A stretch of DNA of 64,000 nucleotides from a virus (Duplodnaviria > Caudoviricetes): the IMG/VR virus record IMGVR_UViG_3300028048_000089, positions 1 to 64,000 of that record. One strand, given 5' to 3'. Numbering within the stretch: the first letter of the stretch is position 1; every line of letters starts with the position of its first letter. The translations under genes and the position numbers were made by a program. Shown here piece by piece: positions 3,104 through 27,775 of the stretch. The notes under the pieces are model-generated. The model worked only from the letters and a program-made list of their open reading frames with translations, had not been told where the DNA came from and did no database searches.

Positions 3104-4146
3104 TTACACACCTCATTTAATTCTTCTACAATAATATTAGTATTGCCGTACTTTTCAAGAATAAATTTTTTAAATTGTTCTAAGTGGTCAGCACTATTAA
3201 TACCTAATGTTTTAGCAACAGCATAATCTGTAGTATTAAATTCTTCACTATATAAAATAAATCTATATTCAATGACATCAGTTAATGTTTTAATAACATC
3301 TCTTGCTTTTTCTTCTAATTTATCAAAACACTTAATAGAAAGAACTGCATTTGGCTTTAATCTATATAATTGCTTGATATCTTCTTCAGTATTAATTTCA
3401 AGTTTATAAAAATTTAAAGCATACGGATTTTCAATAAATTCTATTTGCAATGTATCAGTATCTAAAATTGCAACATGATGTTCATACTTAAATGCATCTT
3501 CATTGAAGTTTTGACCACATAATACACCTAAATTGAGAATTTTATCTTTAACAACCCAATCACCATTATGTAAATGACCATTGATATATAAATCACAATT
3601 CTCTAAAATCTCATCAATTTTAAACCCTGTTGTAGATAAGTAAGGTCCCATTTGAAAATCTTTAATATCATTGTGAGAAAATATAATTAATTTTTTATTG
3701 TAATCTCTATCTGTTAAATATTCTTTTAAAGGCTTTCTATTATCTTCTGTAATATATGGTAAGAATAGTAAATCAGTAGCATCATCTAAATGATAAAGAT
3801 ATGGAGTGTCTTCAATAACACCTATTTTATGAAGTGCTTGAGTAGAACTATATTGAAGAGATGATTCACCACTCTCATGATTACCAACAATAAAATGTTT
3901 TAATCTAGAGGACTTATTCCACTCAATCTCACTTAAGGATGTAATTTCTTCTCTATCTAAATCAGGTCTATCAAAAGTATCACCTAAAAAGATTTCTTCA
4001 ACACAATCATGTTCTTTAGCAACTTGTTCAGCCCAACTAATAGATTTAATGATATGTTCAAGACGAGTAGAGAAACACTTACCTCTACTTCTTACAATAG
4101 ATGAATATTTAGATAAATGGATATCACCGACAATTAATAATTTCAT
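3100..4146 (-). CDS. sbcD: SbcD/Mre11/gp47-like nuclease
   Basis: GDIH, LGDTFD, GNHE and GHLH metallophosphoesterase motifs; adjacent to sbcC. Confidence 0.9.
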   Translation of the reverse strand: MKLLIVGDIHLSKYSSIVRSRGKCFSTRLEHIIKSISWAEQVAKEHDCVEEIFLGDTFDRPDLDREEITSLSEIEWNKSSRLKHFIVGNHESGESSLQYSSTQALHKIGVIEDTPYLYHLDDATDLLFLPYITEDNRKPLKEYLTDRDYNKKLIIFSHNDIKDFQMGPYLSTTGFKIDEILENCDLYINGHLHNGDWVVKDKILNLGVLCGQNFNEDAFKYEHHVAILDTDTLQIEFIENPYALNFYKLEINTEEDIKQLYRLKPNAVLSIKCFDKLEEKARDVIKTLTDVIEYRFILYSEEFNTTDYAVAKTLGINSADHLEQFKKFILEKYGNTNIIVEELNEVCK

Positions 4147-10506: not shown

Positions 10507-10535
10507 ATTATAATGAGATATTTTTTAAATGTCAA
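10507..10535 (-). promoter_or_regulatory. Consensus sigma-A promoter TTGACA-N17-TATAAT
   Basis: -35 at 10530-10535, -10 at 10507-10512. Confidence 0.85.
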
Positions 10536-10900
10536 CAATCTTTATTATCTTCTTCTAATTTATCAACTAAGAACTTCATTAACTTCTCATCTATGACAAA
10601 ATAGTTATGTCCGCCAGGTTCAAATGCAAATGCTATACAACCATTAAATACTCTTTGTGTAAATGCTTCATCTCTATTCTTTGCAATCCACTCTTTCTTA
10701 ATAGAGAATGATTCTTTTTCACTGGTTGGTGTTTTACATTCTATAAGCAAAGATGCCTTAGAAATTAAAACGTCAGATTTATTAAACAAACCAGCCCCAG
10801 AATTTGGCTGAACAACTCCTCCAAGCATATCTGCAATTTGTGATTCTTGTTGTGATGAATAATAACGCGTTGAATTTTCATTCTTTGTTTTTTGCTTCAT
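10532..10900 (-). CDS. PD-(D/E)xK nuclease (resolvase-like)
   Basis: QE...QPNSGA...SDV...LIECK pattern. Confidence 0.7.
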   Translation of the reverse strand: MKQKTKNENSTRYYSSQQESQIADMLGGVVQPNSGAGLFNKSDVLISKASLLIECKTPTSEKESFSIKKEWIAKNRDEAFTQRVFNGCIAFAFEPGGHNYFVIDEKLMKFLVDKLEEDNKDC

Positions 10901-11861
10901 TTTTCTTCCTCTCTAAAGTTTTTCTTAATGATTCACTTGTTTTCTTTTTACTTTCTTCAGTGTGATGACGCCCTAAAAATCTTTTTGAATGTTTTAATGC
11001 TTCACACAATTTTAAAGATTGTGAAATCTTATTTTTAGTTTCTAGAGATGCTTTTTTACCATAGTTTGGATTATTTTCACCCTTGAATGATTTTCTATTT
11101 TTTAAAGCCTTTTTATAATAATCTATGGGTCTTTTTGCACACACCATCTTATACACACATCTTTTAGAGCAATAAACACCTGAACCATATTTTTTACTTA
11201 CATAATAATCAGTCATTACTTTTCCACATATTGGACATGTATGCTTTTCTAATCTCCATTTGTAAATGAAATCTTCTTCCTCTTTAGTTTTCACGCTCTT
11301 CTTTTGATTATTAATAATAAACATTTTTTCATTTCTACTTTTAAGTGCATTATTATGTTTTAATTGTTCATCTTTTGTAAATATTTTTGCTCTTTTATGA
11401 CAACTATAATTATCATTTTTACATGACCAATGAGTTCCTCTTCTTATAAAACCAATAATTCTAGTAGATACATTAAGTAGTTCACTTATATATTTCTCAG
11501 AATAACCTAAATCTAAATAATTCTTAATCAATGAACACTTTTCAAATGAGCATTTGCAATTTCCATTTCTCTCTTCACTCAATCTAGTTGAAAAACCACC
11601 ATCACTTATATTGTATCCAATATCAATATTTTTGGCATCATAGAGTTTAATCCAGTAAATCTCCCTCTCATCCATCAACTCTTTAGTCTCAACTTCTTCC
11701 AAGAGTTCTACTTGAAAATTTTCTTTACCATATTTTTTAATTGCTCTTTTAACTAAATCGCCACTTCCCAAATACTCTCTAGTAAATTGTGAACTCTTAT
11801 GTTGACCAATATAGATTTTACCATTAACTAAATTGGTTGTTTTATAGATATATCCATACAT
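10878..11861 (-). mobile_element. Free-standing GIY-YIG homing endonuclease with NUMOD3-type repeats (HEG1)
   Basis: GYIYKTTNLVNGKIYIGQH, REIYWI, GYN; C-terminal GENNPNYGKK and HTEESKKK. Confidence 0.9.
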
Positions 11862-11922: not shown

Positions 11923-12042
11923 TTACCACACTAGAAATCTTGAAGCACCTGAATTTGGTTGTTGAGTTGCATGTAATTTTTTACATACATCTTTTTCTTG
12001 AGCATCACTGAAAGTTCTTGTTGCCTCTTTATTTTTAGGCAT
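11923..12042 (-). pseudogene. Truncated 5' fragment (39 aa) of the nuclease gene at 10532-10900
   Basis: MPKNKEATRTFSDAQEKDVCKKLHATQQPNSGASRF aligns with KNENSTRYYSSQQESQIADMLGGVVQPNSGAGLF; has its own AAGGAG RBS. Confidence 0.8.
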
Positions 12043-12385
12043 CTGATTTTTTCTCCTTTGGGTCATCTTCCCAAAAATCATCATCATCTTGAAGTTGTTC
12101 GTATGTTTCAATAAGTTCTTTTGCATTTTCGTACTCATTTTTAGCTGCAAAACTTGAAACATACATAATCTCAGCACTATCTAACCAAACAGGGCAAACA
12201 TCATCTACAAGAGCATTTGCAAATTGAATGGCATAAACACCTTTTTGCTTAGGACTTTCATGAATAGATACAGCATGTCCATCTTCTAATAAAATTTTTA
12301 ATTGACTAAACAATGTTTCATAAAACTCTTGTTTATTTTCATAATTCGCTTTTGAGAATACAATTTTATTTGTCTTATTCATCAT
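12035..12385 (-). CDS. Hypothetical protein with acidic C-terminus
   Basis: 116 aa ORF coupled to recA. Confidence 0.6.
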   Translation of the reverse strand: MMNKTNKIVFSKANYENKQEFYETLFSQLKILLEDGHAVSIHESPKQKGVYAIQFANALVDDVCPVWLDSAEIMYVSSFAAKNEYENAKELIETYEQLQDDDDFWEDDPKEKKSDA

Positions 12386-13557
12386 TACTCTTCTTCCTTT
12401 GCAAAATCTACATTGAATGATTCACCAACATTAATATTTAACATCTTTTCAAATGCAACAATATTAGGGTCATCTTTTTGTGATAACTTGTCATAGACTT
12501 TATCATAAATCTTATGCCAAATATCTAAATGTTCTTCTAAATAAGGTTTAATGTTTTTCTTACCTCTAATCTTAATAGGTTCACCATTTTCATCACACAT
12601 TGGTTCACCTGTTTCAGGATTTAAAACAACAAAGTTACCTTGAGATGGGTTAGCAATAAAACCAAAATAAGTAGCAACATCAATTGTATCTTGTAAGATA
12701 TCAACACCTTTAGTATAAGATATGCAAGTTCTACCAAGTTTTCTATCCCATGGGCATACTTTAGTCTTTAACACAGCACATTCCATAATATAACCTGCAG
12801 GAGATTCAGCACTATTAGATAATTCATTTAAATCTTCATCAAAGAATTTACCCTTCTTTAACATAAGTCTAACTGAACAACTATGTTTCCAACCTCTACC
12901 ACCACTTGTAACTAATGGATTACCATAACCACCAATGTTTTCTCTTAATTGATTAATACCAATAAGAGTACAATTATATTTAACAAGTAATGAAGTAACT
13001 CTCTTAACAAAGTCACCTAAAACTTTTGCAATACCACCCATTTCTTTCTTTTCAAATGATTCACCAAATACTTGTTGAGAAACTAACATTGAAAGTGAAT
13101 CAATAACAACCATGCCAACTTCACCAGTTCTAATAAAATTAACAATGTCATCAAAGATATTTTCTGCAGGTTGGTCTTCCGGTCTATAACAAATTGTTTG
13201 AACAGGGTGATTATTCATATCATAACCTGTTTTCTTAGCCCAAGAAGGGTCAACAGTACATTCTAAGTCAACCCAAAGAATCTTTCTAGGGTTATCTTTA
13301 TTGTTCTTTAATTCTTTCTTTTGGAATGATGCACAAATTAAATAAGCAAGAGTTGTTTTACCACTACCTTCAGCACCACAAATTTCAACAATCTTTCTTT
13401 CAGGAAAAGAATTATATAAACAGAAGTCTAAACCAGGACTTCCTAAAGATAAAGTACCATAAGATGTTAAATCTTCAACACCTAAAGAAACAACATTATC
13501 ACCTTGCTTCTTATTAATCTTTTTTAAAATTTCTTGTAAACTTAATTCTTCAGCCAT
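12385..13557 (-). CDS. recA: RecA/UvsX recombinase
   Basis: GAEGSGKTT, VVIDS, INQLRE, TSGGRGWKH. Confidence 0.95.
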   Translation of the reverse strand: MAEELSLQEILKKINKKQGDNVVSLGVEDLTSYGTLSLGSPGLDFCLYNSFPERKIVEICGAEGSGKTTLAYLICASFQKKELKNNKDNPRKILWVDLECTVDPSWAKKTGYDMNNHPVQTICYRPEDQPAENIFDDIVNFIRTGEVGMVVIDSLSMLVSQQVFGESFEKKEMGGIAKVLGDFVKRVTSLLVKYNCTLIGINQLRENIGGYGNPLVTSGGRGWKHSCSVRLMLKKGKFFDEDLNELSNSAESPAGYIMECAVLKTKVCPWDRKLGRTCISYTKGVDILQDTIDVATYFGFIANPSQGNFVVLNPETGEPMCDENGEPIKIRGKKNIKPYLEEHLDIWHKIYDKVYDKLSQKDDPNIVAFEKMLNINVGESFNVDFAKEEE

Positions 13558-13940
13558 TATTCTACCTCACAATACACATGTATATTATTATCTTCATATT
13601 CATCATACAAATAATTCCAATGTTCTCTTTCAAGTTCCTTTACAACATCAGAAGCATATTTATCTTTTAAAAATGTTCTTAATGATAAATCTTGTAACAT
13701 CCCATATTCATCAATCTCATCTTTAAGCCATGAATCTTCAATGTCCTTAACAAATTCTCTAGCACCATCTTCTAAATACCAACTAAGAGGATTGTAATCT
13801 TTTTCATACTTTTCTTTAAATAAATATTCAATTATATCTTGAAGTGAGATATCTACATAATAAGTATAATCAAATGAATCATCTTCAAGTGGATATTCAG
13901 TACATGAAATAGAAGCACAATAAGTTAAACTAGTTCTCAT
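13557..13940 (-). CDS. Acidic hypothetical protein
   Basis: Start moved to ATG 13940 behind an AAGGAG RBS. Confidence 0.6.
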   Translation of the reverse strand: MRTSLTYCASISCTEYPLEDDSFDYTYYVDISLQDIIEYLFKEKYEKDYNPLSWYLEDGAREFVKDIEDSWLKDEIDEYGMLQDLSLRTFLKDKYASDVVKELEREHWNYLYDEYEDNNIHVYCEVE

Positions 13941-14817
13941 TAATTGTCTCCTTAGAACCATACAAGTTCAATTGCATTTCAGTTTGTCTGCTTGTAATTA
14001 ATTTTCTATATTTATTCATAGTTGTCTTTGATACCTCCCAACCGTTATTAATATAATTTTCAACATCTTCAAATTTAACATATTTAACAACAGACTCTTT
14101 AAAAACTCTAAACCTATTTTTTGTATTACTGTCATATTTCTTATTTCTTTTTGTTATATTTGGATTACCTTTAACCCAACCATCATTAAGATAATTTTGT
14201 AAATCAACTAAATTAACTGCCTTAATTTGATTTTTCTTATGAATATATACTTTACCCTTATTCTTCTTCCCTGATTTTCTTAGACTCCCAATTTTCCAAC
14301 CTTGTTTTAAATATTCATCAAGTTCCTCTCTAAATATATACTTAAATACTTTTCCATTATTTACAGTTATTTTATTTGCAATTGATTTATTGCTTTTACC
14401 AAGATGACTTTCAGACATTCTTTTTCTGACTTTTTCTTTATATTCATTATCTTGCCACTTCTTCTTGCTTATTATAGATAATTTTTCTATTGTTTCTTTT
14501 GAATGATGCTCAATTGGACAACCATCACCACCTGTAGTTAAATTATAACCAAATTCTTTTTTATTAGATTTATAATGTCTAATCCAGTACTTTTCTCTAT
14601 TATTTAATCTTTCTTTAGTATCGCACTCTTCTATCAACTCAACTTTGAAATTATCAATACCGTACTTATTCATTGCAAGATGTAAATACAACTTATCATC
14701 TTTAACTTTTGCGTGATGTTTATGTTCACTAAACCTTTTAGTAATTGACTTCTTTGTTTGACCAATATATACTTTATTCGTCAATATATTTGTTATTTTA
14801 TAAATGTTACCATACAT
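13930..14817 (-). mobile_element. Free-standing GIY-YIG homing endonuclease (HEG2)
   Basis: GNIYKITNILTNKVYIGQT, RFSEH, REKYWI, GYNLTTGG; three YLxxGW repeats. Confidence 0.9.
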
Positions 14818-15445: not shown

Positions 15446-15904
15446 TTATACAATTAAAATTGAATAATCACTTTCCATTAAAACTCTTTTCTTTATAGAT
15501 GGAATTTCAATGTAATCATAACCATTAAGTTTGTTAATATTAACACTTTTACAACCATCTTGTTTCATCTTTGTAATTGTATCTAGTGGTACATAGATGA
15601 CTCTATCATGGTCAATAAACCAAATAACAACACCAATAACCACATTCTTACAATGTCTATAACTTAATAAATCTTCATATTGAGTTAAATCACTAAATGG
15701 AAAAGTATTATCATAATGACTTTTTGTTTCAAGCATATATAGTTTATCTTTTGGAAAACATAAAAAGTCACAAGGGTTCTTAGCATTGCCTTTATAACCT
15801 GATACATTATCTCTAAGTCTTAAAATAAATGTTTCAGGAAAACATCTCAACCAATCTTTTTTAAATTGTCTCTCAAAATCTTTACCTCTATTTACTCTAC
15901 TCAT
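15446..15904 (-). CDS. recU: RecU-like Holliday junction resolvase
   Basis: NRGKDFE, PCDF, LETKS, TQYEDL. Confidence 0.8.
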   Translation of the reverse strand: MSRVNRGKDFERQFKKDWLRCFPETFILRLRDNVSGYKGNAKNPCDFLCFPKDKLYMLETKSHYDNTFPFSDLTQYEDLLSYRHCKNVVIGVVIWFIDHDRVIYVPLDTITKMKQDGCKSVNINKLNGYDYIEIPSIKKRVLMESDYSILIV

Positions 15905-16748
15905 GTTTAAATCTCCAACTAATAATTTTAGGAACACATGTTTCCCAATCTATGACATGATGTATTCTCTGATGTTGCTCACCCATCATTGATATCTTTA
16001 CACTTGAAGGCATACACATTACGGAATAGAATGACTTCAAATATGTACCATACTTCAGATAAGCATCACTGTTACCACCTTCTGTAACTTGTGTTTGCAT
16101 TTGTACTAAATCAACATTACATACTGTTAGAAAGAGTTTTCCGATAGAACCAAGTGTAGTATAGGTATTAACATCATCATTCATTCTTCCAATAAATGTA
16201 AATGGATTATCTACTTTGCAGAAAAATGAATTCATTGCTTTTCTCTTTAATTTATTTCTCCAAGCAGAACCATTCAATCCACCAATCAAATCTCCACCTT
16301 GAGCAAATGCTATACTTAAAGCCTTAGATTCTTCTAGATATTCTAACATGTATTCACACATCTTATCTAGATTCTTGATTTTATATGTTAAGAGTTTGTT
16401 ATCTTCTTCACATCTAATTTCAAATAGTTTATAGTCATCTTCTAACTCTAGAAAGTATTTTAAGTTAAGTTGCTTTGCTAATTCAAAGCAAACATTTCTT
16501 GCATACACAACTACTTTATTATTTTTAAAGTTATCACATATATCAAATGTATCAGCAACTTTTTTCTTGTCAAATACTAAAACATGCTCAACACCAAAGT
16601 TATTGATGTAAGCATCTTTAGTAGAATCTTCATTGTCAAGTATTATATAGTATTTACCAGTGTACCCTTGAGACAAGATTGTATTTACTGTATAAACTTT
16701 ATCTGGTCTACCATTTGAAAGAATGAAAATAGCAAACTCATCTAACAT
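15897..16748 (-). CDS. TAGT-like (TET-associated, GT-A fold) glycosyltransferase, copy 5
   Basis: FILSNGR, YARN, ELEDDY, RKAMNSFF, GRMNDD, KSFYSVM. Confidence 0.75.
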   Translation of the reverse strand: MLDEFAIFILSNGRPDKVYTVNTILSQGYTGKYYIILDNEDSTKDAYINNFGVEHVLVFDKKKVADTFDICDNFKNNKVVVYARNVCFELAKQLNLKYFLELEDDYKLFEIRCEEDNKLLTYKIKNLDKMCEYMLEYLEESKALSIAFAQGGDLIGGLNGSAWRNKLKRKAMNSFFCKVDNPFTFIGRMNDDVNTYTTLGSIGKLFLTVCNVDLVQMQTQVTEGGNSDAYLKYGTYLKSFYSVMCMPSSVKISMMGEQHQRIHHVIDWETCVPKIISWRFKHE

Positions 16749-21323: not shown

Positions 21324-22442
21324 TTATCTAATTTGTTTTTGAGAGAGAACATTTTTAACATTGCCGAAAGAGATAACAACAGCTTGATTATCACCAAAAC
21401 TTAAATTAAAGACTTGTGAATCAAGTGTAGAAAGCATACTCTTAACAACCTCTAAATCTAAATTTGCAACATATGGTGTTTCAACATTACCAGATGTATA
21501 TGCAACAACCTCATTATTTGTTCTTCTATGGTCATAAATAGTGACACAAGTCTCAGAGAATTCAAAGATACCGATGCCTCTATTTAAAGTATTTGTTGTA
21601 TCAAACAATAATAATCTATCAATTGCATCTAAAACATCTTTTTTATCAAAAGTAACTGTATTGTCAAAAACTTTATTTGCTCTACCTCTAATAGCTGCAA
21701 CAGGGAAAGAGTTAACTAAAGATTGGTCATTTGTTAAAATAGATGTAATTTCAACATTGTCTTGAGCAAACATAACTCTTGTTTGTGCAATACCGCTAAC
21801 ATCTTCAAAACCGAATGTAACATTAACATCACTATCTTTAAATAATTTAAAGAGTTTAACTAATTTTGGAGTTAACATAACTTTGATTGTTGTTGGTAAT
21901 GCAAATGAGTTAACACATGCACTAGAATTTGTGAATGTTAAACAACCTTCTTGGTCTAAGTAATAGAGTTTTTGAACTTGTTTTGTAGCATTAACATTAA
22001 TTTCTCTACTATTGTTATTTAAGATTGTCATTAATGTTGCACCTGGAACAACAAAACTAGATGTTGGATTACTAACTTTAATTTTTGGTAACACAACCAT
22101 TGAATCAACATCAAACTTTAATGGGAACTTATATGTACCATTTGCTTTAACAACAAGAGCAGAATCATTAGTTGTAAGTTCAACTGTCTTTGTAGTAATC
22201 TTACTAATTAATGCTAAAAATAATTTTGCATCAACAACAGCATGAATTGAATCTTCATTATCTAAAGGTAAAGACACTTTCACATAGTATTCACCATTAG
22301 TAACATTTAAATCTAAAACTTTGCCATCAGCAACTAATTCAACGGTGTCATTAAATGCAACATTCTTTAATGCAGAGTCAGTATCAACAGCACCGACAAT
22401 GCTCTTGCAAACTTCTTGGAATTTTTCCGCTTGTAAAATCAT
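21324..22442 (-). CDS. dnaN: DNA sliding clamp (beta subunit)
   Basis: 372 aa, three-domain beta-clamp pattern; clamp loader genes present in the window. Confidence 0.8.
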   Translation of the reverse strand: MILQAEKFQEVCKSIVGAVDTDSALKNVAFNDTVELVADGKVLDLNVTNGEYYVKVSLPLDNEDSIHAVVDAKLFLALISKITTKTVELTTNDSALVVKANGTYKFPLKFDVDSMVVLPKIKVSNPTSSFVVPGATLMTILNNNSREINVNATKQVQKLYYLDQEGCLTFTNSSACVNSFALPTTIKVMLTPKLVKLFKLFKDSDVNVTFGFEDVSGIAQTRVMFAQDNVEITSILTNDQSLVNSFPVAAIRGRANKVFDNTVTFDKKDVLDAIDRLLLFDTTNTLNRGIGIFEFSETCVTIYDHRRTNNEVVAYTSGNVETPYVANLDLEVVKSMLSTLDSQVFNLSFGDNQAVVISFGNVKNVLSQKQIR

Positions 22443-22481
22443 TTTTTTAACTTCCTTTCAATCATTATATTATACAACTTA

Positions 22482-23586
22482 TTATTCAACTAATTTTCTA
22501 ATAAATTGTTCAGTAGATTCAGTATGTTCACTAATAAGTTTAGCGATTGCTTCTTCTTTTGTCAAGTTATTTTTATTCATATATGAGTCTAATTCTTTAA
22601 GTAACTCTGCTTGATATTCATCTTCATACCAGTGAGATACATTATAAGCATCACAACTCATTGGAACATTCATATAAGGTTTTGCAGTATCTACCATAAC
22701 TTGAGTTAATCTCTTAGCAACTTGTTCAGAGTTTTCTTCAGGACATTCACCTAAAACTTCATCATGAATTGTAATTAATAATTTAAAACCTAATCTATTA
22801 AGTTCTTCATCATTATCAATGTTAATCATTGCTAACTTAGTTAAAGTGGCTGCACCGCCTTGAATAATAGCATTAACACTTTGTCTTTCTGCTTGTGCAA
22901 TAAATGAAGAATTATTTTTAATGACAATATCATCTTTCAATGCTTTTGAGATGATTTCATCTCTTTGTTTTCCCCACTTTGCTTTTGCTAATTGTTTCTT
23001 ATAATCTTGAATCTTTAATTCTAATAACTCATCACTTCTATCTTCACAATCAATAAAAGGATTAAAGTTTTTTATAGAGTTATTATCTGTAAGAGATGTA
23101 AACTCATATTCAGGTAATAAGATGTCAGGCAATCTCCTTCTTCTACCATACCAATCTTCTACATACCCACATTGTTTAACACTCTTATGAGTGTCATTAA
23201 TCCATTTTTCCACCTTTGGGAAGGCTTTAAAGAATTTATTAATGATTTCTTGGGCATCTTCTCTAGATTTGCCTAATTGTTCACCAATAGAGTTGGCCCC
23301 TCTACCATATTCAAGGCCTAATAAAATTGTCTTTGCTTGACTTCTTCTTTCTTTACCATCAACTTGTTTCTCATGAGTGATAGGATTAAACTCTAAACAC
23401 TTCTCATAAGGGACACCAAAGGATAAAGATGCAATAACAGCATACAAGTCTTTACCTTCTTTATATGCATCAAGCATACTCTTGTCTTGAGACATGAAAG
23501 CAGTTAACCTAGGTTCTTGGGCCGACTTACGAATAGTCACTACCAACTATTCTATATTGTTTTCTAGTTTGTATTGACTTTTTCAT
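22482..23586 (-). CDS. polA: Family-A DNA polymerase, C-terminal part; 19-codon ORF 23586-23527 plus 23522-22482, needing a 7-nt bypass
   Basis: GAGGAGGTG RBS, MKKSIQTRKQYRIVGSDYS-stop, then AQEPR in the +1 frame; motif B RSQAKTILLGLEYG, motif C TIHDE. Confidence 0.85.
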
Positions 23587-23603
23587 AGCACCACCTCCTC
23601 TCT

Positions 23604-24563
23604 TTATATTTTATACCACTTTATATTTTCTATTATTTTAGTACAATTATCTTCTTTAGAATGTTTTTTAACTGATGAGCAGCTAGGGAGATATGTAATA
23701 GCCTTTCCTTGAATTGATGCTTTTATCTTTCTTTGTAAAGTTGTTTCAGCATATTTATCCCCAAATGGTTTATAATTATTATACCACCAAATAGTTGCAT
23801 CTCTAATTGTTTTAAAATCTTTTCTTATTTTATTATCAATAATACAATAACAACCCACACCTCGTGAATTAAATCTATTCATTTGTGGCTCATTTGTTGT
23901 CATCATTTCTTGTCCACATCTTTGAGCATAACTTCTCTTCTCGTATTTTAACCACCCATTGTTTAAATATTCTTGCAGTTTTTCAGGTCTAACTCTTATT
24001 GTCTTACTACCCTTATAAATATACACGAGTGTTTTTTGGTTTTCGGATATCTTTTTTCTTATTTCACTAGAAAATAATTCTCCTCTTTCTCTCTTTTTCT
24101 TCATTGTAAGCGATATTTTGTTTCTCACATACTCACTTCTCATAGAGTTTTTATGTCTTTCTCTATACACATCATTATACATAGGATTATGAAGACTGCA
24201 CTTCTTTCTACATTCCTCATACTCTGATTGTAAAACATCTAAATCACTATAAGTAAAATGTTTATTCATATAAGATAGAGCAATAAAATTGTTATAAAAG
24301 AAAGTTTCAGTTGATGAACATAATGCTAACAATAAATGAGCAATAAAATGGTCCTTATATTGTAAATTTATATAATTCTCCTTTGAATTATCAACATCTA
24401 AATTATTTTCTCTATAATAAAATCTTGGAATAATGTGATGTTTTTGAGTTTTAAATTTTTCTCTTTTAGTTTCTCTGTTTGATTCAATAAGTTCTACATA
24501 CTTATCTAAATACTCATTGTCAATACAAAGACCAATATCTAGTAATTTTTCTTTAAGTGTCAT
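23604..24563 (-). mobile_element. Free-standing HNH homing endonuclease (Mob-like; HEG3) between the polA halves
   Basis: HHIIPR...N...DHFIAH; NUMOD3-like SEYVRNKIS and SSEIRKKIS; ATG at 24563 behind AAGGAG. Confidence 0.85.
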
Positions 24564-24615
24564 ATAAATCTCCTTATACTTCACTTAATTTAGCAAGTGA
24601 TTTTTCGGCTCAAGA

Positions 24616-26184
24616 TTAAATATAAATAAATATCTTTGAATTTTCAACAATTAAAGACTTGACAACATCATAAGAGTTTTCTGAATTGAGTAATTTATCT
24701 CCAACTTTTAAATCTTTGGCTTTAACCCATAAATCATTAAACAAATTAACTTCATCATAATAATCTACAACATAACAGTTGTCATCACATTCTATAGTAT
24801 TATACCTTGTACTTGCTTTAAACAATAATCTTATGTCTTTAGCATGAGAAGGGATTTGTTGTAAGTTTGGGTCTTGACTACTAAATCTACCTGTATCAGT
24901 GCCACATTGATTAAAACTACAATGTATTCTATTATCATAATTAACTTCTTGAGAAAGACTATCAACGAAGTCTCTAACTAACTTCAATAATTTCTTTCTC
25001 TCATTAATTAATTTACAAATCTTAAAAGGCATTTGGTCAATAATCTTTTCACCGGTACCTCTAGGAGATTTCTTATCAATTGCAGGAGATTTTAAAACAT
25101 CATACAATAAAATTGCTAATTGTGTTGGAGATTCTAAGTTAATTGGCCATTCAAGTTGCTCATTTTTTGATTTTTGCAACTTACCTGATTTCATTACTTT
25201 ATTATTTGCATCTTGAGATAATCTCCAAGTATCAACTTGAGGTTTTAATTGTTCAAGTTCTTCATCTATAAGTACTTGATATTCATCAACTTTTTTGTGA
25301 TACTTTTCACTTAATCTCTTTGCATAATCTTGGTCAATTTCAATACCTCTAAGTTCCATGTCTTTAACAACTTTGACTAAAGGCATTTCAATATCTCTAA
25401 ACAATCTATACAATTTACTATTTTCAGGTTTGTTAAATTGACCTACTTGATACTCATATAATTTATAAGTCATCATTGGGTCCGTAGCAGAATATAAAGC
25501 AAACACATGAGGAGGAACTTGTTCATAGTCAACACTACCAAATAAATGCTCAATGTCATATTTATCATGGTCAGGGTCAACATGTAATTTATATTGAACT
25601 TTCAATTTTGACTCTTCATTTTCATCTAATATTCTAGCTGCAATTTGAGTATCCCAATAAATAGGCAATTCAATACCACAAGTACATTGAAGAACTCTAA
25701 CATCAAATGATGCATTATGATAAATACACTTAGTATTTGCATCTTTAATTCTTTGCAATTCTTCTTTAATGTCTTTAGTTGTCAATTGATTACTAAGAAG
25801 ATTACCATCAAGGTCAACATGACTAATAGGAATATAAATTTGTTTCTCATTCTTAGTATATAAACATGGACCAACTAATTTACATGTTAAAGGGTCAAGA
25901 CTCTTATTGGTTTCAGTATCAATAGAAATAAAACCATTTTCAATTGCTTTATTAATGAATCTATGTAATTCTTCTTTTGAATAAAGAGTTACAGTATCTT
26001 CAGCATGCTTACCTAAAATTCTATAGACTTCTTCTTCAATTGCTTTCAGCCTATCACAAAGAGGAAGTTTTGAAGAACTTTTTTTGCTCTTCTTAACTTC
26101 CTTTGGATTATTAATATTGTCAAGTATCTTTTGGGTAGAATCTTCTATTTCAAATTCTTCTCCCCATAAACCTTCACTAATCAT
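24616..26184 (-). CDS. polA: Family-A DNA polymerase, N-terminal part (3'-5' exonuclease and thumb) with a Hint-like tail
   Basis: IDTET, HNASFD, YSATD, TGRFSSQDPNLQQIP, IRLLF; ends before motif A. Confidence 0.9.
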   Translation of the reverse strand: MISEGLWGEEFEIEDSTQKILDNINNPKEVKKSKKSSSKLPLCDRLKAIEEEVYRILGKHAEDTVTLYSKEELHRFINKAIENGFISIDTETNKSLDPLTCKLVGPCLYTKNEKQIYIPISHVDLDGNLLSNQLTTKDIKEELQRIKDANTKCIYHNASFDVRVLQCTCGIELPIYWDTQIAARILDENEESKLKVQYKLHVDPDHDKYDIEHLFGSVDYEQVPPHVFALYSATDPMMTYKLYEYQVGQFNKPENSKLYRLFRDIEMPLVKVVKDMELRGIEIDQDYAKRLSEKYHKKVDEYQVLIDEELEQLKPQVDTWRLSQDANNKVMKSGKLQKSKNEQLEWPINLESPTQLAILLYDVLKSPAIDKKSPRGTGEKIIDQMPFKICKLINERKKLLKLVRDFVDSLSQEVNYDNRIHCSFNQCGTDTGRFSSQDPNLQQIPSHAKDIRLLFKASTRYNTIECDDNCYVVDYYDEVNLFNDLWVKAKDLKVGDKLLNSENSYDVVKSLIVENSKIFIYI

Positions 26185-27032
26185 TATTCAATGTCGTATG
26201 TTCTTCTTGGTCTTGTAAATGTAAAGCCATCAGAAGGTTGTTGAGGTTGTTGTGGTTGTTGCACTGGTGTTGATGGCATATCATCATACTTTGGTGCAGG
26301 AGTTGGAGATAAGGCTTGTTCAACTTGTCTTTCTTCTTCAACAGAATTGAACACAGGTGCACCACCAACTTTAATACCATTATCTAATGTAGTTAAATTA
26401 TCATTGTTTTGAGATTTTTTTGGCATTGGGAAATCACCAGATTGTAAAAATTCTTCAATGTCTTCTTTACTTCTTTCCATATAGGAATGATGTGCTAAAT
26501 CAAAATCTTCAAAAGCACTGAAATCTTTAACATAACCATTTGCTTCTGTATATTTCATAGGATTTGCATATTGAATATCATAACTTGTATCAATACCACT
26601 ACCAATTCTTGTAATAGTAAATAAATTATTACATAAGTCACCATATTCATTAAATCTTGCAGATAAAATATCAGCATATTTCTTTTGGAAATTAGCAACT
26701 TCAGGAGAAACTTTAACAACTTTACCAGTTTCATCTTGAATATAATGTAAAAGTTTAACAAAGAATCTTGCTTTAATTGGTGTACCATTTGCACATAAAG
26801 GACATGCATCCATTGGGTCTTTAGCACTTCTTAAACAAACAACACTTCTAGTTCTATCTTTAATCTTAACTTCATGAATTGTTGTAATTTCAAAATCTTT
26901 TGGTGTTGCAAACATAAATCTAACAATTGCTTTTTCACCTGGTTTTAATTTAAAATAACCAACTTTTCTTTCTTTCTTTTGGTTAGATGTACTCTTCATA
27001 TCAGAGTATGTTTCATACGAATATTTTGGCAT
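26184..27032 (-). CDS. gp32-like single-stranded DNA-binding protein
   Basis: YFKLKPGEKAIVRF, His/Cys zinc site (CPLC), ITRIGSGIDTSY, disordered tail. Confidence 0.75.
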   Translation of the reverse strand: MPKYSYETYSDMKSTSNQKKERKVGYFKLKPGEKAIVRFMFATPKDFEITTIHEVKIKDRTRSVVCLRSAKDPMDACPLCANGTPIKARFFVKLLHYIQDETGKVVKVSPEVANFQKKYADILSARFNEYGDLCNNLFTITRIGSGIDTSYDIQYANPMKYTEANGYVKDFSAFEDFDLAHHSYMERSKEDIEEFLQSGDFPMPKKSQNNDNLTTLDNGIKVGGAPVFNSVEEERQVEQALSPTPAPKYDDMPSTPVQQPQQPQQPSDGFTFTRPRRTYDIE

Positions 27033-27066: not shown

Positions 27067-27564
27067 TTATTTACCAGTGGAACCAAAGCCACCAATACCT
27101 CTTTCGGTTTCATTTAATTCATCTACTTCTTCAAATTCAATAGGAAGAGTAAACCCTAATTTGATTTGGCCAATCCTATCTCCAACTTTATACTTTTCTT
27201 TACCTGGAATTACTTCATAGAAATAGGCCAATACTTCACCTCTATAGAGTTCATCAATAGTTCCTTCACAGTTACTTAATATAAGCCCTGTTTTCCAAAT
27301 TGAAGAACGAGGCCTAAAGTCTAGTGATAGTTTAACTTTGGAATCAGACACCAATTCTTCTAGATTCAATCCCCACTGTACAAACATACCAAATATTAGA
27401 GATGGTTTTCTAACTACCTCAAATGCAAGACCAATACCATATTTCCAAATACCGGGTTCTACTTCTTCACATGAAGTTGCATAGACATCATAACAAAAGT
27501 CTTCATCATGAACCTTCGTAGGGGTTTTTGCTAAGTCATTTAATTTTTTAATTTTTACTATCAT
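27067..27564 (-). CDS. dut: Trimeric dUTPase
   Basis: PRSS, GTIDELYRGE, GDRIGQ, RGIGGFGSTG. Confidence 0.93.
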   Translation of the reverse strand: MIVKIKKLNDLAKTPTKVHDEDFCYDVYATSCEEVEPGIWKYGIGLAFEVVRKPSLIFGMFVQWGLNLEELVSDSKVKLSLDFRPRSSIWKTGLILSNCEGTIDELYRGEVLAYFYEVIPGKEKYKVGDRIGQIKLGFTLPIEFEEVDELNETERGIGGFGSTGK

Positions 27565-27574
27565 ATAACCTCCT

Positions 27575-27775
27575 TTATACTGGTATATTAAGTGCATGAC
27601 ATAACCATATTGCTTCAAATAATGCTACTGCAAATGAGACAAAGAATAAACCCCCTTTAGCAGGTATGCATTTTATTTTGTCATCTCTATATTTATATAC
27701 AATAACACTAAGAGGAATAACAACTGCTAATCCCAATATTCCTACATAAATCATTTCAAGTACAAATTCATTCAT
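27575..27775 (-). CDS. Small membrane protein
   Basis: Two TM segments. Confidence 0.55.
   Translation of the reverse strand: MNEFVLEMIYVGILGLAVVIPLSVIVYKYRDDKIKCIPAKGGLFFVSFAVALFEAIWLCHALNIPV

Follow-up and report, generated by a model that had tools for sequence, protein, structure and literature searches.

The window analyzed here is a 64,000-nucleotide stretch of a 115-kb IMG/VR phage record that is estimated to be ~70% complete, and the sequencing runs that hold the locus of interest are bovine gut metagenomes. A megablast search with this locus against 50,697 phage records returned no match. The locus encodes a family A DNA polymerase (PolA) in pieces on the minus strand, with a homing endonuclease gene between the halves, and the downstream half is interrupted within catalytic motif A by 7 nucleotides (nt) that ribosomes probably bypass. 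The features of the locus, with lengths in amino acids (aa), are as follows.

24616..26184, minus strand: gene for the N-terminal PolA subunit (N subunit), 522 aa, carrying the 3'-5' exonuclease and the beginning of the polymerase domain, up to ...QQIPSHAKDIRLLFKAS
24619..24780, minus strand: tail of the N subunit, read from a weak PT-HINT match and alignment as the N-terminal part of an intein-like (Hint-fold) relic domain
23604..24563, minus strand: homing endonuclease gene between the polymerase halves, 319 aa from ATG 24563
23592..23600, minus strand: Shine-Dalgarno (SD) sequence GAGGAGGTG of the gene for the C-terminal subunit (C subunit), read directly and kept in relatives L086, L087, and L090
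23530..23586, minus strand: first 19 codons of the C subunit, MKKSIQTRKQYRIVGSDYS, ending in GAC-TAT-TCG and closed by TAA
23530..23532, minus strand: take-off codon UCG (Ser of DYS), read directly
23523..23529, minus strand: 7-nt coding gap TAAGTCG, made up of the stop UAA (23529-23527), G (23526), and the landing codon UCG (23525-23523)
22482..23522, minus strand: resumed frame of the C subunit, 346 codons and a stop, with AQEPR... and motifs B and C

The exonuclease and polymerase domains of the family A enzyme were spread over two open reading frames (ORFs). ORF 26184..24616 matched the Pfam families DNA_pol_A_exo1 (PF01612; E 1.6e-13) and DNA_pol_A (PF00476; positions 16-158, E 9e-24), and its product runs to ...DIRLLFKAS and then into a 54-aa tail. 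ORF 23546..22482 matched positions 160-381 of DNA_pol_A (E 6e-51) and lies in the +1 frame relative to the 19-codon frame. The latter starts at the ATG at 23586 on the minus strand and holds the catalytic Asp of motif A as well as the last strand of the relic domain. The codons before the gap are GAC (23538-23536), TAT (23535-23533), and TCG (23532-23530), and those after it are GCC (23522-23520) followed by CAA GAA CCT AGG. Motif A is completed as DYS|AQEPR, and is exact, only after a hop over the gap, which would give a product of 19 + 346 = 365 aa. In an alignment with the uninterrupted relatives L002 and L003, the window had exactly 7 extra bases inside motif A; L002 has a single 814-aa ORF (77% aa identity to the window) with an unbroken ...GGDFSAQEPR.... 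All coordinates given in a preliminary description of this DNA, which also noted the ribosome-binding site (RBS) ahead of ATG 23586, proved exact when the minus strand was reread.

We compared window positions 22400-26300 with the Logan contigs of four runs (X1 to X4) from three studies. The contig from X1, probably the source run, was identical to the window. The contig from X2, a metatranscriptome library from another study, spanned 22815-24092 with 0 differences and no alignment gap, and it kept the 7 nt. Diverged strains were found in X3 and X4 (2025 study), with 12 substitutions in the 827 nt of 23173-23999 and 4 substitutions in the 195 nt of 23404-23598, respectively, and neither had a gap at 23523-23532. 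The presence of the 7 bases in contigs of four runs and three studies therefore excludes an assembly error, which the preliminary description had named (as reads that lack TAAGTCG) among its refutations.

A search for protein homologs of the C part, limited to 194-620 aa, yielded 120 proteins. A short leader with an intact motif A at the start (M..K.RT.Y.IVGSDYSAQEPR) was present in 34 of them, while 22 began out of frame directly ahead of xQEPR, like the window, and 44 began at the first Met downstream of motif A. We then parsed DNA loci for the point at which the eight motif codons D-[YF]-S-x-Q-E-P-R are interrupted, using 80 loci from IMG/VR and 80 from metagenomes as a replicate collection (160 in all), plus four close relatives. 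Among the IMG/VR loci, motif A was intact in 53, carried a micro-insert in 23, and carried an insertion of ~1.1 kb at the same site in 2, with 2 at contig edges or of other kinds; the corresponding metagenome counts were 62, 15, 1, and 2. Across both collections there were thus 115 intact motifs and 38 micro-inserts, and all 38 were in split genes (0 in unsplit polymerase genes). Together with the window and its close relatives, these gave 31 distinct inserts of 1 or 5-14 nt, placed after the Ser, Ala, second Gln, Glu, or Pro codon of motif A. Examples are as follows.

Window: take-off TCG, insert TAAGTCG, next codon GCC
L032: take-off TCG, insert TGAGTTCG, next codon CAA
L056: take-off TCT, insert TAGTCT, next codon GCG
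L053: take-off TCT, insert TAGCGAGAAAGTCT, next codon CAG
L066: take-off GCC, insert TAGCT, next codon CAA
L041: take-off GAA, insert TAGCCTGAG, next codon CCA
L015: take-off CCG, insert TAAGGTTGCCT, next codon AGA
L125: take-off CAA, insert TAGTTGTGTGCAA, next codon GAA

The nearest insert-bearing relatives, L086, L087/88, and L090 (~70% aa identity), have the same nuclease gene, RBS, and leader as the window, and their inserts of 7-8 nt read TAAGTCT, TAAGTTG, and TGAAGTCT, respectively.

The inserts followed one rule. In 30 of the 31, a stop codon (TAA, TAG, or TGA) stood directly after the last in-frame motif codon, while stops make up 7.5% (0.075) of the 3-mers in these regions. In 28 of the 31, the insert ended in a codon that matched the take-off codon at two or more of its three letters, and in 9 the two codons were identical. 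Among the first 20 events, 18 had this two-of-three landing match against a per-event null of 0.115, a count not attained in any of 200,000 simulations; when the landing position was shifted by -2 to +3 nt, only 0-2 matches remained. The replicate collection contributed 8 new events, all with a stop (8/8) and 7/8 with a landing match. Insert lengths covered all three classes modulo 3, including in-frame inserts of 6, 9, and 12 nt; therefore, no frameshift explains the set, and only bypass explains all of it. Readthrough of the in-frame inserts would put 2-4 extra residues in the catalytic motif. In L039, L056, L070, L047, and L037, the resumed frame had no start codon from its last stop up to the motif. 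Bypassing is defined by two signals, a landing codon that the same tRNA can read and a stop occupying the A site (PMC5009743). Since 31 inserts obey one rule, hopping by ribosomes is the most likely way past them.

L068 and L074 (motif A region, ~3990) had TAG at conserved Gln positions (S-Q-TAG-E-P-R; YS-TAG-DKNM) and, judging from these positions, probably read TAG as Gln; the take-off stops in these two phages are TAA and TGA. An alternative genetic code was considered for the inserts and rejected, given that all three stops are used and that most inserts are not multiples of three.

The interrupted gene is under protein-level selection. Across the window, L086, L087, and L090, the ratio of nonsynonymous to synonymous substitution rates (dN/dS) in the frame downstream of the gap was 0.19-0.28 at dS 0.9-1.1. 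Both the AQEPR... codons after the landing site and the G-S/G-D-Y/F-S codons before take-off showed synonymous changes with the amino acids kept, and on these codon patterns the protein-level constraint changes frame exactly at the gap. The residues of motifs B and C were invariant in an alignment that included nine insert-bearing members. A dead allele, another refutation that had been named, is therefore excluded by purifying selection on the interrupted frame across four insert-bearing lineages and by the intact motifs B and C.

The gene between the polymerase halves (ORF 24563..23604) has its own RBS (AAGGAG), an alternative start at GTG 24584, and an HHIIP...N...H motif. It matched phrog_655 (homing endonuclease; E 2e-17) and phrog_12434 ("HNH endonuclease"; E 3e-6), which bears out the HNH homing endonuclease that had been claimed beside the gap; a Pfam search with this ORF gave no match. 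In a tblastn comparison it was 27% identical over 77% to a T4-like "mobC homing endonuclease" (E 3e-6). Thus, of the earlier claim that the cassette arose independently, the part concerning the 7-nt element holds, while the nuclease has a distant likeness to Mob enzymes. Sorted by how far the N part lies from motif A, loci were either plain and unsplit, extended by ~220 nt, or extended by 450-2160 nt with a nuclease gene or remnant. Wherever an intact nuclease gene lay between the halves, the insert was present (10/10 loci), so the suggested check of whether the insert occurs together with the HNH gene in relatives came out positively, and for several nuclease types: HNH (window, L039, L086, and L087, with an N-terminally shortened copy in L090), GIY-YIG (L015, L032, and L040), LAGLIDADG (L047), and phrog_3339 (L037). 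Six split loci had neither insert nor nuclease gene. This distribution fits a history, reconstructed from present-day loci, in which the nuclease gene was gained together with a target-destroying insert and was later lost. Recent horizontal transfer of the nuclease cassette was also considered and was not seen; the identity of the nuclease gene is that of its flanks.

Several further observations concern the endonucleases. The HNH-type and GIY-YIG-type enzymes at the polA site share a C-terminal module of ~190 aa (33-37% identity, E 1e-22 to 1e-33), found in window 23604-24563 (minus strand), L040:3035-3901, L032:2746-3468, and L057:3081-3761, and L054 keeps only a remnant of this module. From the alignments, this looks like a swap of nuclease domains on one probable DNA-targeting module. 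In L057 (2895-3985), as well as L059 and L129, an otherwise unsplit polA carries an insertion of ~1.1 kb with a GIY-YIG ORF. This intron-like insertion stands exactly after the Ser codon of DFS, ends ...AAAAG before CAACAAGAACC, and occupies the same spot as most micro-inserts; an Rfam search of L057 2850-4060 gave no match to a group I intron. The phage genome is rich in endonuclease genes, with GIY-YIG ORFs at 10878-11861 and 13930-14817 (both minus strand) flanking a recA-like gene (12385-13557), and an HNH paralog (47% identity over the first 138 aa) and more GIY-YIG matches outside the window (record positions 109378-109788, 65212-65433, and 114094-114315). An 84-aa ORF upstream of a GIY-YIG gene (11923-12177, minus strand) ends in a weak copy of a Holliday-junction resolvase N terminus (phrog_2002, E 9e-4, versus 3e-22 for the resolvase at 10532-10900, minus strand, just downstream of the GIY-YIG gene). 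Judged by this similarity, the copy may be a duplicated gene start left by endonuclease insertion.

The best explanation for the window, to which we assign a probability of about 0.78 on comparative sequence evidence, is a short stop-hop translational bypass from Ser-UCG to Ser-UCG that is linked to homing endonucleases. The polymerase would be made as two subunits, with the C subunit initiated at AUG 23586. At codon 19, the peptidyl-tRNA-Ser would sit on UCG 23532-23530 with UAA in the A site. In a share of ribosomes, the tRNA would unpair, move 7 nt onward, and pair again with the identical UCG 23525-23523 with no termination, and reading would resume at GCC to give the 365-aa subunit with an exact motif A (IVGSDYSAQEPR); we infer both this hop and its efficiency. 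We likewise infer protection from cleavage and association of the subunits. The 7 bases break up the gene's most conserved stretch of DNA, ~75 bp downstream of the nuclease gene, and most likely persist because they destroy the nuclease target at no cost to the protein, and the subunits probably associate via the split intein-like relic, with the C subunit leader as its last strand. The core of the preliminary description, a 7-nt bypass from UCG over UAA to UCG that restores DYSAQEPR in a 365-aa subunit, is supported in this way by the rule common to the 31 inserts, by selection, and by the endonuclease link. A broader proposition, toward which we lean with less assurance, is that bacterial ribosomes generally and efficiently pass "immunity scars" in the catalytic motifs of phage polymerases by very short stop-hops, for which a stop and 0-11 further bases ending in a near-cognate codon would be enough, without a long hairpin or special peptide; homing endonucleases of several families would select for these scars.

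It is important to note that a number of observations weigh against bypass or against its link to endonucleases. Thirteen of the IMG/VR insert loci had no intact nuclease gene between the halves; 3 of these 13 (L018, L052, and L054) had a longer spacer in which a remnant may lie, and L054 holds a nuclease gene remnant. Within the clade of the window, divergence of the nuclease gene and the insert equaled that of the polymerase. Three of the 31 inserts (L018, L034, and L112) matched the take-off codon only at the middle letter C, and the L069/L097 insert, GCC[TCGCA]CAA, had a matching landing codon but no stop, the sole stop exception among the 31; it could reflect a slow codon, a dead allele, or an error. 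At the window there was no convincing take-off stem-loop, as the best local fold was -2.9 kcal/mol and 35% of shuffles were as good, and the hairpin that had been proposed, GAC-UA-UUCG-UA-A-GUC, came to +1.3 kcal/mol and is given up. SD-like sequences upstream of take-off were alike in interrupted and intact loci (Mann-Whitney p 0.47). The leader (basic KKSIQTRK) was equally conserved in split genes without an insert and is thus not insert specific. Finally, unstimulated stop-hops occur at ~1% in E. coli constructs, and UAAG is a good terminator there.

The 101-nt context of the window gap had a folding z of -1.1, and the mean over 21 loci was about -0.8, which is a trend only. Inverted repeats around the stop were clear in some relatives (L037, L041, L045, L054, and L060), with z below -2.8 in L037, L041, and L045. 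A phage tRNA-Ser or an odd tRNA was not found in the window, where the only tRNA was tRNA-Met, and window 22400-26300 had no Rfam match (including group I introns) at E up to 0.1. With no hairpin, SD enrichment, tRNA-Ser, or Rfam match, the bypass signal therefore seems minimal.

Among the alternatives, the one that survives best, although we regard it as improbable, is a +1 ribosomal frameshift at UCG-UAA-G that continues as AAG UCG. The resumed frame is indeed +1, and stops in the A site are known to stimulate +1 shifts (prfB). Moreover, motif A of L119 has a one-base insert (GAA CCC T AGG, i.e., CCC-UAG-G) for which a +1 slip of tRNA-Pro at the stop is the best reading, linking hops to classical +1 frameshifting. 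However, the tRNA on UCG cannot re-pair on CGU, and the product at the window would be DYS-KS-AQEPR (IVGSDYSKSAQEPR), with two extra residues in motif A, just as the preliminary description had reasoned. Residues added between the catalytic Asp of motif A and the conserved Glu are unlikely to be tolerated by family A polymerases. A +1 shift would also fail to rescue the in-frame (6, 9, and 12 nt) and +2 (5, 8, 11, and 14 nt) inserts of the relatives, and it does not predict the likeness of the landing codon to the take-off codon.

Two further alternatives are each less probable still. If termination at UAA were final, the 19-aa peptide and a separately initiated C fragment would exist as separate pieces, or the C fragment would serve in another role, with new initiation at TTG 23546 or at the first in-frame AUG, nine codons past the gap. 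Gene callers do annotate relatives in this manner (22/120 with the out-of-frame start and 44/120 with the first Met after motif A), but there is no RBS ahead of TTG 23546, the resumed frame of several relatives offers no start codon, and from the landing site to the first Met the codons change synonymously while the encoded protein is conserved. Synthesis cannot be catalyzed by a fragment that lacks the motif A Asp, and separate pieces do not predict the landing rule. Equally doubtful is removal or masking of the 7 nt in RNA before translation, by micro-splicing or editing of a new kind. This would restore motif A just as well, and nothing direct speaks for it. The preliminary description had named cDNA lacking the 7 nt as a refutation of bypass; the metatranscriptome contig keeps them, a finding in favor of bypass that is weakened by possible DNA carry-over. 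No Rfam family was found in 22400-26300, and a stop as first codon in 30 of 31 inserts together with the matching end codon are features of decoding and not of RNA cutting. We know of no mechanism for excisions of 1-14 nt. The weakest alternative, a broken or decaying allele or assembly error in a phage that relies on another polymerase, draws on the ~70% completeness of the record, which leaves room for a second polymerase, and on the stopless insert of L069, but it is opposed by the insert in 4 runs and 3 studies, by dN/dS of 0.19-0.28 at dS ~1 in four insert-bearing lineages, by intact catalytic motifs B and C, by one rule common to 31 inserts, and by a search of the 115-kb record in which no second PolA was found.

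The split itself lies within an intein-like relic domain. The N subunit tail and the remainder of the domain, a leader strand at window 23554-23586 (minus strand; KSIQTRKQYRI), together aligned with a ~70-aa domain between KA[ST] and motif A, which is contiguous and in frame in the unsplit relatives L009, L027, L035, L062, L064, and L085 (L085:3710-4048). The idea that the cassette brought the split, tail, and leader therefore does not hold, since they are parts of an older domain that is contiguous in some unsplit relatives. An AlphaFold (AF2) model of the relic region was all-beta, with a predicted local distance difference test score (pLDDT) of >90 for residues 10-92 and a last strand at 82-92. 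In an exhaustive structural comparison (VIA-align), the best 12 matches were nearly all inteins or Hint domains (Z 7.2-4.6, ~2 A over 62-64 residues); a Foldseek search of the domain against the PDB gave nothing at E <=0.001, with E above 0.1. The PT-HINT match in the window's tail was weak (E 1.6e-3, under Pfam's cut-off). The domain has no N-terminal nucleophile, no TxxH, and no terminal Asn; in the alignment the first position varies (C, S, Y, T, and F), and the end is ...QT/RT-RY with no HN. Without splicing residues, the domain is therefore read as an intein relic for which splicing is not expected. The split falls before the last strand of the domain, and this suggests that the two subunits may associate by strand complementation. 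The VVDYYDE stretch of the N subunit tail was considered as a second motif A and rejected, as it aligned with nonconserved strands of the relic domain.

To our knowledge, programmed bypassing has been proven at the bench for a single bacterial case (T4 gene 60), alongside one mitochondrial system, and our search of 8.4 million papers found no report of bypassing in a polymerase gene. In T4, gene 39, mobA, and gene 60 form a locus with a 50-nt translational bypass (Manning and Atkins, bioRxiv 10.1101/2022.08.31.505936; reviewed in PMC5009743). As in that element, an essential replication gene in the window is split around a free-standing HNH (Mob-type) gene, the upstream half is longer by a tail and the downstream half by a leader, the gap comes early in the downstream gene (codon 46 in T4 and codon 19 in the window), and the take-off and landing codons match with a stop directly after take-off. 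The window differs in that the gap is 7 nt instead of 50 nt (the shortest published clade has 20 nt), a significant take-off stem-loop, an internal SD, and an insert-specific leader peptide are all lacking, and the gene is polA and not a topoisomerase gene. Furthermore, the tail and leader belong to the older intein-like domain and not to the cassette, and among the window's relatives there are no fewer than four nuclease families and five different motif codons in use. The window site is most likely a short natural counterpart of the T4 gene 60 bypass. Shorter natural counterparts have long been presumed, and no natural in-frame stop hopping was known to the review (PMC5009743). Synthetic "stop-hops" in E. 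coli constructs used matched codons flanking a stop (PMC5009743), and there, as proposed here, peptidyl-tRNA leaves a codon beside a stop and re-pairs on a match a few bases downstream; unlike these laboratory constructs, the window signal is natural, stands in an essential gene, and is kept by selection.

Other systems share parts of this arrangement. The mitochondrial "byps" of Magnusiomyces capitatus are inserts of 27-55 nt with an unused A-site codon in many genes (PMC5009743). They resemble the window family in that many short coding inserts are made harmless by hopping and a two-of-three match between take-off and landing suffices, whereas the window family has inserts of 1-14 nt, a true stop, bacterial translation, one catalytic motif, and a link to endonucleases. 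In fractured genes, a free-standing homing endonuclease lies between the two parts of a split intein (Dassa et al. 2009, PMC2677866). As in these genes and in Aeh1 nrdA split by mobE, a conserved gene here is in two pieces with a nuclease gene between, and as in fractured genes parts of a Hint-fold domain form the end of one piece and the start of the other. In contrast, the Hint relic of the window is ~70 aa and lacks the nucleophile, TxxH block, and terminal Asn, and those loci have no coding gap. Streptomyces phage terminase genes hold a candidate short bypass (PMC10732093; PMC5009743); it is likewise a proposed short natural bypass in a phage gene but, unlike the window, it depends on a rare UUA codon, has a proposed regulatory role, and has no endonuclease link.

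Further breaks were observed in this polymerase family. They concern P0010, P0013, P0015, P0080, P0097, P0104, and P0113, as well as L047/L052 (~2321-2606 and ~3330-3615) and L068 (~3380-3678). Some homologs start only at motif B (..LEYGRG), and some N parts have a second break at the NLQNIP motif, with a new ORF starting MQNIPSH. Such sites may be additional hot spots for splits or hops in the family. Around the polymerase genes of the window, position 21324-22442 (minus strand) holds a clamp-like gene whose L086 homolog is a weak DNA_pol3_beta match, and 26184-27032 and 27067-27618 (both minus strand) hold a single-strand DNA-binding protein gene (phrog_14578) and an ORF ending in a dUTPase-like GIGGFGSTG motif. 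A TET-associated glycosyltransferase gene (PF20691, E 9e-32) lies at 15897-16748 (minus strand), and given this gene the phage DNA may carry glycosylated hydroxymethyl-cytosine.

The family of 31 variants is a testable natural series with gaps of 1-14 nt, five take-off codons, three stops, and both perfect and two-of-three landings, and it sits in one gene with an assayable product. The inserts would tie bypassing to the arms race between homing endonucleases and their targets, and bypass would explain the truncated or frameshifted look of many phage polymerase genes in metagenome annotation (66/120 homologs). If the general stop-hop reading is true, natural bypassing would be common in phages instead of a T4 curiosity, and gene callers would be misannotating hundreds of essential phage genes.

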